Numbered from the stretch's first letter, positions 12,647 through 31,093 are shown. The stretch: DNA of 32,000 bases from an uncultured Actinomycetes bacterium (GCA_963843975.1 CAWJMG010000001.1:420001-452000); one strand, 5' to 3'. A program made the numbers and translations. The notes: generated from the sequence alone by a model not told the origin.

Positions 12647-12673
12647 TCAGGACGACGGGGCCAGGGCCGATGG
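12647..12673 (+). promoter_or_regulatory. Sigma-28 (FliA/SigD/WhiG)-like promoter candidate: TCAG-N15-GCCGATGG, upstream of the peptidoglycan hydrolase gene
   Basis: One of five same-strand intergenic copies with an identical 15-nt spacer. The -10 half matches GCCGATAA at 6 of 8 positions. Confidence 0.55.
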
Positions 12674-12731
12674 GGGGATGAAGTCCTCTACGGCGCACGG
12701 ATGCGCCTCTCGTCCCGACCCCGGAGCATCC

Positions 12732-13820
12732 GTGTCCATCGCCGAGATCTCGGCGCGCATCGCGCAGATCCAGCGCCAGACAGTGTCGCGTCCCGCAGCC
12801 GTCGAGCGCTTCGCCGGGCCGTCGTTCGCCTCGACCCTGGCTGCGCTGTCCCCGACCACCGACCCGGCCGCCCTCGGCAACGTCCCCTCCCCGGTCATCG
12901 ACACCACCGGCAGCACCGGTGCGGTCGGCCAGGCGGACGGCGACGACCTCGCTGCCTGGGCCTCACGCCAGGTCGGCGTCCCCTACGTGGCCGGCGGGCG
13001 CTCCCAGCAGGGCTGGGACTGCGCCGGGTTCACCCAGTGGGTCGCCAAGCAGTACGGCATCGACATCCCCGAGGTCTCCTGGCAGCAGATCAAGCAGGGC
13101 ACGCCCGTCGCCGACCTCGGCAGCGCCAAGCCCGGCGACCTGCTGTTCTTCCACGAGCCGAACGGCCACAACCGCGACCCATCGGCCCTCAAGGTCAACC
13201 ACGTCGGCATCTACCTCGGTGACGGGAAGATGGTCGAGGCGGCCAACCCGCGCGCGGGCACCCGCATCAGCACGGTCGACGCGAGCCACCTCGTCGGCAT
13301 CCGCCGCATCGCCCCCACCGGCGACGGCGTCGCGCGCACGCCCACGGAGGTGGCTGCGGCCGGCATCACCGGCGCGTCGCCCGTGCAGGGTGCCGCTGCG
13401 TCGGCCTCGGTCGCCGCACCGTCGTCCAGCGCCCAGCTCGGCCCGATGCAGCTCGTCGACGTCCTCAAGCAGGCCGGCTTCCAGGGTGCGGGACTGCGCA
13501 CGGCCTGGGCCCTCGCGATGCGCGAGTCGCACGGCCGCCCCGGTGCCGTAGGCGCACTGAACCCCAACGGCACCCGCGACCACGGCCTCTTCCAGCTCAA
13601 CGACATCCACCTCGGCAAGAACGTGGACGGCGGGCAGGTGTACGACGCGGTCGCGAACGCGAAGGCGGCGTACAGGATCAGCAACGGCGGCACGAGCTGG
13701 GGCGCGTGGGGCCTCGGCCACACCGGCTGGGCCGGGCACCTCGAGCAGTCGCAGCCGCAGTTCTACGCGCGCATCAACACGGCCTACAAGGCGTGGTACG
13801 ACCGCTTCCCCGGGGCCTGA
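12732..13820 (+). CDS. Bifunctional peptidoglycan hydrolase: NlpC/P60 endopeptidase domain plus C-terminal SLT-like lytic transglycosylase domain; no N-terminal signal peptide
   Basis: The NlpC/P60 block is GVPYVAGGRSQQGWDCAGFTQWV..NHVGIYLGDGKMVEA. The SLT-like block is AMRESHG..HGLFQLN..AAYRISNGG. GTG 12732 has a GGAG 5 nt upstream. Alternative start ATG 12678 lies only 5 nt after the promoter -10 element. Confidence 0.8.
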   Translation: MSIAEISARIAQIQRQTVSRPAAVERFAGPSFASTLAALSPTTDPAALGNVPSPVIDTTGSTGAVGQADGDDLAAWASRQVGVPYVAGGRSQQGWDCAGFTQWVAKQYGIDIPEVSWQQIKQGTPVADLGSAKPGDLLFFHEPNGHNRDPSALKVNHVGIYLGDGKMVEAANPRAGTRISTVDASHLVGIRRIAPTGDGVARTPTEVAAAGITGASPVQGAAASASVAAPSSSAQLGPMQLVDVLKQAGFQGAGLRTAWALAMRESHGRPGAVGALNPNGTRDHGLFQLNDIHLGKNVDGGQVYDAVANAKAAYRISNGGTSWGAWGLGHTGWAGHLEQSQPQFYARINTAYKAWYDRFPGA

Positions 13821-13877
13821 CCGCTGTCGTAGCCCCTCCGCTGCGCGAGTCGTGAGCGAGCCGAGAGGCGAACCCCC

Positions 13878-13904
13878 TCAGGGGCGGGCGCCACCACCCG
13901 ATGA
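13878..13904 (+). promoter_or_regulatory. Sigma-28-like promoter candidate: TCAG-N15-CCCGATGA, upstream of flgB
   Basis: Same architecture as the other copies. It shares an exact 15-mer, CCGATGAGGCAGGTG, with the flhA copy. The ATG at 13901 that opens the listed ORF lies inside this element. Confidence 0.55.
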
Positions 13905-13981
13905 GGCAGGTGAGCAGGAAGCTCGTCCAGGTATGCCAAGGAACAGGCCCGATCCGCATCCGCGGGTACGAGGAGTTCTTC

Positions 13982-14341
13982 ATGGACGGCGCGCTCGTCA
14001 TCCCTGCCCTGCAGGTGGCGCTCGACGGCCTTGCGCAGCGCCAGCGCATCTCCGCCGACAACATCGCCAACATCCACACGCCCGGGTTCCGCGCCCGAAG
14101 CGTGGAGTTCGAGAGCGCCCTCGACCAGGCCCTCGCGACCGACCCGTCTGCCGATGCCTCCAGCCTCTCCGGCGCCGTCTCCACCGGGTTCACCTCCGAC
14201 CCCGCGATGGAGAACGGCAACAACGTGAGCCTCGAGCGCGAGACGCTGCTCGGCCAGGAGACGAACCTGCGCTTCTCGCTCGCCGTCCGTGCCGTCGACG
14301 GCCGCTTCGGCCTCGTCCGCGACGCCCTCAGGACCACGTGA
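13982..14341 (+). CDS. flgB: Flagellar basal-body rod protein FlgB
   Basis: [38 protein letters not shown] is the rod-protein N-terminal signature. GAGGAG lies 6 nt upstream of ATG 13982. Confidence 0.88.
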
Positions 14342-29144: not shown

Positions 29145-29148
29145 CGCC

Positions 29149-29919
29149 GTGACCACGGCCTTCACGACCGAGCAGCTGATCGGGTACCTGCTCGTCTCCA
29201 TCCGCGTCGCCACATGGATGTGGATCACGCCGCCGTTCGGCGGCAAGACCGTGCCGGGCATGGTCAAGGCGCTCGTGTCCCTCGCGGTCGCGATCCCCCT
29301 CACGCCCCCGGCGGTCGAGGCCGCGGACACCGTGCCCACAACGATCGGGCCCATCGCCTGGGCCGCGATCCAGCAGGTGATCATCGGCGGGGCGCTCGGG
29401 CTCGCCTGCCTCTCGCTGCTGGCGGCAGTTCAGTCGGCCGGATCCCTCATCGACCTCTTCGGCGGCTTCTCGATCTCGCAGGCGTACGACCCGATGATGA
29501 TGCAGCAGGCGTCCGTGATGGCCCGCGTCTACCAGATGCTCGCCGCGGTCCTCATGCTCGTGACCGGCGCGCACATCATCCTCATGCAGGGCTTCGCCGC
29601 GACGTTCTCGGTGCTGCCGATCGACGGCAGCCTCGACCTCGCCGCGACCGCCGACACGCTCACCGCGGGTCTCACGACGCTGTTCGTCTCGGCCCTGCAG
29701 ATCGCCGGACCGCTCATCGGGATCGCCTTCCTCGCCGACGTCGCCCTCGGCCTCATGACGCGCGTCGCGCCGGCCCTCAACGCCTTCTCGCTCGGCTTCC
29801 CGATCAAGATCGGCCTCACGCTGGTGCTCATCGCCCTGGCCGTCCCCATGCTGCCGCCCGCGGTGCTCGGACTGTCCGAGGACGCCGTGGCCGCGATGGC
29901 CGGGATCGTGGGGGGTTGA
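29149..29919 (+). CDS. fliR: Flagellar export-gate protein FliR
   Basis: 256 aa, polytopic membrane protein, with LIDLFGGFSISQAYDPMM. It occupies the conserved position. Confidence 0.9.
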   Translation: MTTAFTTEQLIGYLLVSIRVATWMWITPPFGGKTVPGMVKALVSLAVAIPLTPPAVEAADTVPTTIGPIAWAAIQQVIIGGALGLACLSLLAAVQSAGSLIDLFGGFSISQAYDPMMMQQASVMARVYQMLAAVLMLVTGAHIILMQGFAATFSVLPIDGSLDLAATADTLTAGLTTLFVSALQIAGPLIGIAFLADVALGLMTRVAPALNAFSLGFPIKIGLTLVLIALAVPMLPPAVLGLSEDAVAAMAGIVGG

Positions 29920-29923
29920 CGGC

Positions 29924-31027
29924 ATGGCCGACAAGGGCGCCGCCGACAAGACCGAGAAGCCGACACCGAAACGGCTCCAGGAGGGTCGCAAGGAGGGCCA
30001 GGTCGCCCGGTCCCCCGACCTCGCGGCCTGGTCGGGCGTGCTCGCGCTGACCTTCGTCCTCCCAGGCGCGGTGTCCGGCGTCCACGACGCCATCACCGCG
30101 ATGCTCGACCACCTGCCCGACCTCATGGCGGAGCCGAGCGTCGAGGAGGCCATGCGCATCGCAGGCGAGCTCGTCAGCGGTGCGGCAGTGGCCCTCCTGC
30201 CCATGCTCGGCGTCCTGTTCCTGACGGCGATCGTGGCCGGCGTGGCCCAGGGCGGTGCGCGGCCGTACGGCGCCCGTCTCAAGCCGAAGTTCTCCCGCGT
30301 CAGCCCGATGCAAGGCCTCAAGCGCATGTTCGGGCCGCAGGGCGCCTGGGAGCTCGTGAAGTCCCTGGTCAAGACGGCCACCGTCGGGCTGCTCGCCTGG
30401 AACCTCGTGTCCGGCGCCAGCACCCTCGTCATGGGCTCCGGCTCGCTGCCCCTGAGCGCGATCGTGACTGCGATCGGCGCGGCCGCACTCAGCCTGGTGC
30501 GCGTCGTCGCCGTCGTCGCCCTCGTGATCGGCGTCGCCGACTACCTCGTGGCCCGGCGACGGGTCATGAAGGGGATGATGATGTCCCGCAAGGACATCAA
30601 GGACGAGATGCGCCAGTCCGACGGCGACCCGATGGTCAAGGGCGAGATCCGACGCCGCGCGCTCATGATGTCGCGCAACCGCATGATGGCCGCGATCCCC
30701 GAGGCCGATGTCGTCCTCGTGAACCCCACCCACGTCGCCGTCGCCCTGAAGTACACCCCGGGCCATGGAGCTCCGCGCGTCGTGGCGAAGGGACGCGGCG
30801 TCATCGCCGCCAAGATCCGCACGATCGCCACCGAGAACCGCGTCCCGATGGTCGAGGACATCCCCCTCGCACGCACGCTGCACGGGGCCTGCGAGGTCGG
30901 CGAGGAGATCCCGGCGGACCTCTACACGGCCGTCGCGCAGATCCTCGCCTTCGTCATGGGGCTCAAGGCCCGAGGCGCCGCGGTCGGCATGCACCGCGCC
31001 CGAGAACTGGCCATGACGCGCCGCTGA
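29924..31027 (+). CDS. flhB: Flagellar export switch protein FlhB
   Basis: 367 aa. The N-terminus is KTEKPTPKRLQEGRKEGQVARS. The NPTH autocleavage site is present (VVLVNPTHVAVAL). Confidence 0.93.
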   Translation: MADKGAADKTEKPTPKRLQEGRKEGQVARSPDLAAWSGVLALTFVLPGAVSGVHDAITAMLDHLPDLMAEPSVEEAMRIAGELVSGAAVALLPMLGVLFLTAIVAGVAQGGARPYGARLKPKFSRVSPMQGLKRMFGPQGAWELVKSLVKTATVGLLAWNLVSGASTLVMGSGSLPLSAIVTAIGAAALSLVRVVAVVALVIGVADYLVARRRVMKGMMMSRKDIKDEMRQSDGDPMVKGEIRRRALMMSRNRMMAAIPEADVVLVNPTHVAVALKYTPGHGAPRVVAKGRGVIAAKIRTIATENRVPMVEDIPLARTLHGACEVGEEIPADLYTAVAQILAFVMGLKARGAAVGMHRARELAMTRR

Positions 31028-31066
31028 GCCTCCGGTGAGCCTGCTGCTCCGGATGGCGCGATCTGC

Positions 31067-31093
31067 TCAGGCGGCCCTCCCCGGTGCCGATGA
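31067..31093 (+). promoter_or_regulatory. Sigma-28-like promoter candidate: TCAG-N15-GCCGATGA, in the 146-bp flhB-flhA gap
   Basis: This is the best match to GCCGATAA (7 of 8). It shares the 15-mer CCGATGAGGCAGGTG with the flgB copy. In-frame ATG 31090 lies inside the element. Confidence 0.55.

Follow-up and report, generated by a model that had tools for sequence, protein, structure and literature searches.

When the flagellar genes of an actinobacterium follow one another on one strand like a single superoperon, is the cluster nevertheless divided by promoters of its own, and which sigma factor would read them? We address this question for 32,000 nucleotides from an uncultured Actinomycetes bacterium (GCA_963843975.1, CAWJMG010000001.1:420001-452000), referred to below as the window, in which an original prediction had noticed five copies of a bipartite motif and had taken them for sigma-28/WhiG-like promoters with a non-canonical −35 box. 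The five motifs are very probably promoters of the flagellar sigma-28 factor (FliA/SigD/WhiG), of the cluster-linked type named WhiG1, as judged from their geometry, the CCGAT core, conservation in relatives, the start of fliM and the FliA/WhiG gene found in related clusters. The leaders that follow most of them carry small conserved hairpins, which are discussed afterwards.

Five sites in the gaps of the flagellar cluster

The pattern TCAG-N15-SNCGATGR matches the window five times, on the plus strand only (12647, 13878, 23134, 25829 and 31067). In dinucleotide-preserving shuffles of the window, whose G+C content is about 72%, the mean was 0.14 matches and the maximum 1. A C stands directly 5′ of each copy, so the upstream box is CTCAG, invariant as had been claimed, and the spacer is exactly 15 nt at every site. 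According to the Pfam map the copies are intergenic, on the coding strand and before motility genes; they occupy the five real, and only sizeable, intergenic gaps of the flagellar cluster, before the genes for a peptidoglycan hydrolase, flgB, flbD, fliM and flhA (Table 1).

Because the motif had been defined after seeing the data, an independent position weight matrix (PWM) was trained on 32 sites of other genomes only. This matrix ranked the five window sites on top, with 20.5 to 32.7 bits; the best score in 20 Markov-randomised windows was 16.5 bits. The sixth-best match in the window reached 8.6 bits, and given this drop after the fifth match the window holds exactly five sites. The looser published pattern, CTCA-N16-17-NNCGA, gives 22 matches on both strands of the window; the 17 others all lie in coding sequence, and they were rejected as additional promoters for want of any further similarity and for PWM scores of 8.6 bits or less.

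The arrangement is that of the canonical sigma-28 promoter, TAAA-N15-GCCGATAA (quoted in PMC8325347), with TCAG replacing TAAA and the GCCGAT core of the −10 box retained; the original prediction was right about the spacing. The 5′ halves of the −10 boxes read, in window order, GCCGA, CCCGA, GCCGA, GACGA and GCCGA, and the whole boxes agree with GCCGATAA at 6, 6, 6, 5 and 7 of 8 positions. The agreement of 6-7 of 8 claimed for all sites thus applies to four of them, while the fourth site, GACGATGG, matches at five positions.

Table 1. Putative promoters, leader hairpins and transcription units of the window, with additional copies of the motif in two related loci (positions of the latter refer to those loci)
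Feature	Position	Strand	Details
Promoter before NlpC/P60+SLT peptidoglycan hydrolase gene	12646..12673	+	CTCAG-N15-GCCGATGG; 32.7 bits; predicted start ~12680-12681, leader ~52 nt
Promoter before flgB	13877..13904	+	CTCAG-N15-CCCGATGA; 20.5 bits; predicted start ~13910-13912, leader ~71 nt
Promoter before flbD-motA-motB-fliL	23133..23160	+	CTCAG-N15-GCCGATGG; 31.4 bits; predicted start ~23167-23168, leader ~57 nt
Promoter before fliM-fliN-fliO-fliP-fliQ-fliR-flhB	25828..25855	+	CTCAG-N15-GACGATGG; 28.7 bits
Promoter before flhA	31066..31093	+	CTCAG-N15-GCCGATGA; 26.4 bits; predicted start ~31099-31101, leader ~74 nt
Motif in L168	18879	-	before flgN operon
Motif in L168	20095	+	before fliC
Motif in L169	19537	-	before flgN operon
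Motif in L169	20790	+	before fliC
Conserved GTG start of fliM	25863..25865	+	7 nt between GTG and −10 box
Unit 1: peptidoglycan hydrolase (NlpC/P60 + SLT_3)	12732..13820	+	Pfam; start GTG 12732, placed by the conserved leader and by tblastn of the L082 protein
Unit 2: flgB-flgC-fliE-fliF-fliG-fliH-fliI-fliJ-fliK-flgD-flgE	13982..23069	+	Pfam, tblastn; start ATG 13982
Unit 3: flbD-motA-motB-fliL	23224..25640	+	Pfam, tblastn; start GTG 23224
Unit 4: fliM-fliN-fliO-fliP-fliQ-fliR-flhB	25863..31027	+	Pfam
Unit 5: flhA, runs off window	31174..32000	+	Pfam FHIPEP; start GTG 31174 from leader alignment
Hairpin directly after flgE	23086..23122	+	GC-rich, strong, 11 nt before flbD promoter; minimum free energy of region −42 kcal/mol, z = −5.6
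Hydrolase leader hairpin	12692..12707	+	GGCGCA-CGGA-TGCGCC; two compensatory pair changes, 6 loci
flgB leader hairpins	13912..13948	+	5′-terminal GAGC-AGGAA-GCTC (13912-13924); second, GCC-AAGGAACA-GGC (13935-13948)
flbD leader hairpin	23175..23188	+	CGCT-ACGGAT-GGCG; compensatory changes, 8 loci
flhA leader hairpins	31100..31130	+	5′-terminal TGCC-AGGAC-GGCA (31100-31112); CC-ACGGAC-GG (31121-31130); sequence invariant, 9 loci

Conservation and the sigma factor

Syntenic loci were found through FlgE and FlhB homologues (L082-L087, L168, L169 and L170, L082 being from GCA_964269125.1 and L169 being on the same contig as L084); the eight relatives are 61-90% identical to the window in FlgE or 69-77% in FlhB. 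L082-L087, L168 and L170 carry the motif in all of the five corresponding gaps that their fetched DNA spans, so that conservation at orthologous positions is found in every relative in which it could be seen. The hydrolase site recurs in L082, L084, L085, L086 and L087, the fliM site in L082-L087, and the flgB, flbD and flhA sites in 5, 7 and 8 orthologous loci, respectively. The 15-nt spacer is present at 32 of 33 orthologous sites, the exception being N16 at the fliM site of L086.

In an alignment of 32 sites from seven loci (the window and six others) the C, T and A of CTCA and the C, G, A and T of CCGAT each hold 1.8-2.0 bits. CGAT occurs at all 32 sites and CCGAT at 29; CTCA is found at 31 of 32 orthologous sites, with a single CTAA. 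The three positions after CCGAT read R-G-G at 1.0-1.3 bits, and the 15 spacer positions, at 0.1-0.9 bits, are randomised in sequence. Such a pattern is the classic phylogenetic footprint of two protein-contacted boxes held at a fixed distance. In the same alignment a moderately conserved R-W-W patch (GAA, GTT or GAT, for example) was noticed at positions −7 to −5, counted from the T of CTCA; in the window it is exemplified by 12640-12642, three bases upstream of CTCA amid 72% G+C, and it may be an extension of the −35 box or an UP-like contact.

The same motif, CTCAG-N15-GCCGAT, also stands before fliC and before the flgN-flgK-flgL-fliW-csrA operon in L168 and L169, in whose clusters flhA is followed by an flhF-like gene and a small ORF, by csrA-fliW-flgL-flgK-flgN in reverse orientation, and finally by the genes for a sigma factor, FliC and FliD. 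This sigma gene thus lies inside the flagellar cluster, as do WhiG1 genes, which have no RsiG partner, and its product scores 205 and 196 bits in L168 and L169 on TIGR02479 FliA_WhiG (cutoff 189.6). A FliA/WhiG homologue, of the kind that the original prediction had suggested locating, is present in these two relatives; none was found in the window or within 10 kb after flhA in L170. Upstream of the sigma gene itself, between the flgN operon and fliC, the motif is absent in both L168 and L169, so this gene apparently has a promoter of a different kind.

A CTCA-type promoter class is already published for motile actinobacteria, and the window sites are further members of it. The FliA-dependent promoters of Actinoplanes missouriensis have reportedly been described by Hashiguchi et al. 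2020 (Mol Microbiol 113:1170) and Jang et al. 2016 (J Bacteriol 198:2219). For the FliA ('WhiG1') of this species the reported consensus is a −35 box CTCA, N16-17 and a −10 box GCCGAACT (Denis et al., preprint PMC12871210), the form CTCA-N16-GCCGA being derived from RNA-seq of a fliA mutant. The search rule used across Actinomycetota takes exact CTCA, N16-17 and GCCGA with the CGA fixed, allows at most one mismatch in −10 positions 1-2 and requires a start codon within 200 bp (Denis et al. 2026; PMC12871210, PMC13595943); in the mSystems version the −35 box is widened to XT(C/A)AX (PMC13595943). All five window sites fall exactly under this rule (CTCA, N16, the −10 rule, intergenic position and less than 200 bp from a start), because CTCA is followed by G and N15, that is 16 nt, before GCCGA, CCCGA or GACGA. 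In the published predictions flbD and flagellin are the most frequent flagellar WhiG1 targets (PMC13595943), and the WhiG targets predicted most widely are reported to be genes of phosphodiesterases (PDE) and diguanylate cyclases (DGC).

In our own survey of 66 diverse actinobacterial flgE-flbD loci, taken from among the matches listed, about 50 have CT(C/A)A-N15/16-NNCGA at a distance of 67-130 nt before flbD. Here the CTCA form was seen in Planosporangium, Geodermatophilus, Blastococcus, Modestobacter, Demequina, Cellulomonas, Kineosporia, Actinoplanes and Couchioplanes, and the CTAAC form in Microbacteriaceae and Micrococcaceae. Since this survey and the published work both extend such boxes across the phylum, the −35 preference is not lineage-specific, contrary to the original prediction, and the upstream box offered there as non-canonical is the one published for Actinoplanes FliA/WhiG1. 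Only the 3′ end of the −10 box is particular here, T(G/A)G(G) and not TAA or AACT.

The likeness to the Actinoplanes WhiG1 system covers the CTCA −35 box, the 16-nt spacer counted from CTCA, a −10 box that begins GCCGA with invariant CGA, the presence of several such promoters per flagellar cluster with one before flbD, and flagellar operons on one sigma tier. The differences lie in the 3′ part of the −10 box, T(G/A)G(G) in place of the corresponding part of GCCGAACT, and in the number of units: the window has five with 24 genes (seven per cluster in relatives), whereas all flagellar genes of A. missouriensis are arranged in 11 units under FliA1/FliA2 promoters (PMC13083903). With canonical sigma-28 promoters, those of E. 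coli/Salmonella FliA, B. subtilis SigD and Streptomyces WhiG, the sites share the bipartite form, the 15-nt gap, the GCCGAT core, the association with flagellar and motility genes and an expected start about 7 nt after the −10 box. They differ in TCAG for TAAA, in which T and the third-position A are kept, and in a −10 end GG/GA for AA. Moreover, enterobacterial FliA drives late genes only, whereas the sigma factor here appears to drive early genes (rod, MS-ring, export) as well as late ones.

Several points weigh against assigning the sites to sigma-28. The canonical −35 box TAAA is not found at any of them, TCAG agreeing with it at two of four positions in 5/5 cases, and their −10 boxes end in GG or GA, not in the canonical AA. 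No sigma-28 gene lies in the window, and its presence is deduced from relatives with 61-69% FlhB identity; the closer relative L170 has none within 10 kb after flhA. Finally, a convincing upstream hairpin exists at one of the five boundaries only, so the partition of the cluster may be leaky.

Four other explanations were weighed against these data. The departures from the canonical boxes, the CTCA −35 and the GG/GA at the last two −10 positions, could mean that the sites belong to a different alternative sigma factor, another group-3 or an extracytoplasmic function (ECF) one, whose specificity merely resembles that of sigma-28. This is quite unlikely, because the only sigma gene in the clusters of relatives is of the FliA/WhiG family and the CTCA-N16-GCCGA consensus came from Actinoplanes fliA mutants; in addition, Geodermatophilus WhiG1 is reported to substitute functionally for Streptomyces WhiG. 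Two conserved boxes flanking a free spacer might also be half-sites of an operator, bound by a dedicated activator or repressor of flagellar operons, for instance a TcrA-like response regulator, and TcrA of A. missouriensis binds upstream of five flagellar units (PMC13083903). Yet the TcrA sites are described there as lying upstream of promoters, not as promoters; in our case the two boxes show no relation in sequence, whether as direct or as inverted repeats, the second of them is the sigma-28 −10 core GCCGA(T) at sigma-28 spacing, and fliM begins at the expected +1. We consider an operator very improbable.

With co-directional genes and four of five gaps without a convincing terminator, the motifs may be transcribed, and conserved RNA hairpins occur nearby, so one could think of a processing or protein-binding site in a long read-through transcript. 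There is, however, no conserved pairing between or within the boxes, the spacer is fixed in length and free in sequence, which is the signature of a DNA-protein contact, the hairpins begin only after the predicted +1, and Rfam gives no match; an element acting at the RNA level has hardly any probability left. Least of all do we favour chance or base composition, or the reading of 'GATG' as the start codons of the downstream genes, although the motif was drawn up with the data in view and the ORFs of flgB and flhA are in frame with the ATG of their boxes. Chance is excluded by five matches against 0.14 expected from shuffles and by the clean separation in the independent PWM. Start codons in 'CGATG' were rejected as well: the ATG is unconserved, since orthologues of flbD and fliM have GATAG at this point and L086 has GATCA or GATCG, and the conserved starts lie 52-74 nt downstream.

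With sigma-28 promoters as the preferred explanation, and by analogy with studied promoters of this family, region 4 of the sigma factor would contact CTCA and regions 2/3 would contact (G)CCGAT(G/A)G, the fixed 15-nt gap being the spacing that the family requires. Transcription would start 7-8 nt past the −10 box, giving five units: the hydrolase gene, flgB to flgE, flbD to fliL, a leaderless fliM to flhB, and flhA onward. Because copies of the motif stand before fliC and the flgN operon in L168 and L169 but none before the sigma gene, the regulon appears to be a flat one of two tiers, the sigma factor and then all (about seven) flagellar operons, as has been reported for A. missouriensis. 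As the 10 kb past flhA in L170 hold neither the sigma gene nor csrA or fliW, the genes of this region are probably located elsewhere in the window's own genome. In this scheme we infer the dependence on sigma, the actual starts and the extent of read-through between the units.

Transcription units, boundaries and the start of fliM

The co-directional cluster from the hydrolase gene to flhA comprises 24 genes in the window (Pfam), and no PWM match above 8.6 bits lies inside the long unit from flgB to flgE. Leader alignment together with tblastn placed the start codons of the hydrolase gene, flgB, flbD and flhA as given in Table 1; over the five sites the distance from the end of the −10 box to the start codon ranges from 7 to 80 nt.

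The original prediction had two sites preceded by terminator hairpins. One of these stands up, the hairpin directly after flgE: its position is kept in 7 of 8 loci with differing sequence (z = −2.3 to −7.8), and this recurrence marks a real boundary before the flbD promoter. It is likely a terminator or a 3′ stabiliser of the hook-gene transcript. Before the fliM site, in contrast, there is no exceptional folding (z = −0.5 to −0.8). None of the five sites adjoins a terminator according to a simple scan for such structures, and across loci no consistent hairpin precedes the other four sites (all but flbD); read-through from upstream is likely there for this reason. Five transcription units, predicted as a minimum, are accordingly a reasonable but only partly supported view of the cluster, with the boundary before flbD in its favour and the four gaps lacking a consistent hairpin on the other side.

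The geometry at fliM differs from that of the other sites. In seven loci (the window and L082-L087) the conserved FliM N-terminus ...(R/K)(V/L)YDFRRPTKLSR opens with a GTG 6-7 nt past the −10 box; independent gene calls begin fliM at the same GTG in L083, L084, L085 and L086. This places the start codon at +1, where the sigma-28 transcript should begin, and implies that the predicted fliM mRNA is leaderless. Leaderless mRNAs are common in Actinobacteria. The ORF listing and some gene callers put the start of fliM elsewhere, at ATG 25894 in the window and at an ATG inside the promoter in L082.

Compared with the 90%-related locus L082, fliM and fliP of the window each carry one 1-nt insertion that shifts the frame, at about 25939-25940 and 28668-28669. 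Both insertions are in an AGCT[T]C context, in fliM after ...YDFRRPTKL and in fliP after residue ~197; of the 14 copies of AGCTTC in the window, the remaining 12 coincide with no frame break found. The insertions could reflect errors of assembly, or else true pseudogenisation of two essential flagellar genes.

On its 5′ side the cluster is preceded, according to Pfam, by cell-wall polysaccharide genes, a LytR gene, a DUF4031 gene and a GAF-EAL gene that ends at 12631. The DUF4031 gene (Pfam, 112 bits) lies at 10650-10928 (+), between the LytR and GAF-EAL genes, and is followed by a 67-codon ORF at 10929-11132 (-) with no family matches and by a relatively A+T-rich divergent intergenic region of 290 nt. 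Further on, at 11386-11413, we noticed a weak sigma-28-like match, TTCAA-N15-GTCGATGA, which ends 6 nt before the GTG (11420) of the GAF-EAL gene, encoding a c-di-GMP phosphodiesterase, in a leaderless geometry as at fliM. At 6.2 bits in the PWM, below the random maximum, it is not significant and was not accepted as a sixth promoter.

Leader hairpins as candidate CsrA sites

Four of the five leaders (hydrolase, flgB, flbD and flhA) start with short conserved hairpins that expose GGA in the loop, in the form ACGGAY or AGGAM (Table 1); such hairpins are also seen in L082-L087 and L168-L170. The flbD leader has a second GGA within its Shine-Dalgarno sequence CAAGGACGG (23209-23217), and the Shine-Dalgarno sequence of flhA is GAAGGAC at 31163; the ribosome-binding sites carry this further GGA in CAAGGACGG, GAAGGAC and GGAG. 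GGA-loop hairpins are enriched about 4-fold in the 60 nt after the promoters, a figure that is not fully independent because orthologous positions were counted. In the flbD leaders a hairpin with an ACGGAY loop after the promoter was found, among the matches listed, in 23 of 47 diverse actinobacterial loci, spanning several actinobacterial families, compared with 15% of random windows. In L168 and L169 the leader of fliC carries CCC-ACGGAT-GGG together with an AAGGAG ribosome-binding site. No Rfam family reached the gathering score anywhere in the window, the leader hairpins included.

The arrangement resembles the control of flagellin mRNA by CsrA and FliW in B. subtilis (hag) and Campylobacter (flaA), with a GGA-loop hairpin in the 5′ leader and a second GGA at the Shine-Dalgarno sequence, and that of the L168 and L169 fliC leaders is the arrangement of B. 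subtilis hag. The flagellar clusters of these relatives include csrA and fliW, and the CsrA of both loci passes TIGR00202 (88 bits, cutoff 70); neither gene was seen in the window, nor in the 10 kb after flhA in L170. The difference from the known system is that the predicted GGA hairpins here also belong to early operons, in the leaders of hydrolase, flgB, flbD and flhA, and not to flagellin alone. In the published material a CsrA site was previously predicted for the flagellin leader of Kineococcus (PMC2587704), and FlgM is given as absent from actinobacterial clusters, with the late checkpoint described as unidentified (Denis et al. 2026, Discussion). The leader hairpins are plausible candidate CsrA sites on early and late operons, since relatives have csrA-fliW in their cluster, actinobacterial clusters lack FlgM and a CsrA site had so far been predicted only on the Kineococcus flagellin leader. 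That each sigma-28 promoter of this lineage is coupled to a CsrA-type leader, including that of fliC in relatives, is a tentative and rather doubtful proposal.

As to the promoters, the finding mainly confirms in an uncultured actinobacterium the published picture of motile Actinomycetota, in which one FliA/WhiG1-type sigma factor reads CTCA-N16-GCCGA before every flagellar operon, early and late. The 32-site footprint refines the −10 box of the lineage to CCGAT(G/A)G(G). For annotation the analysis offers five operon boundaries, four corrected start codons (hydrolase, flgB, fliM, flhA) and a predicted leaderless fliM. The GGA-loop hairpins are the more interesting lead, bearing on what replaces the FlgM checkpoint in actinobacteria. 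If they are CsrA sites, the FliW-CsrA partner switch would gate the translation of early as well as late flagellar operons, and this would supply the assembly checkpoint that, according to Denis et al. 2026, has yet to be identified, FlgM being absent from actinobacterial clusters and all operons sharing one sigma tier.

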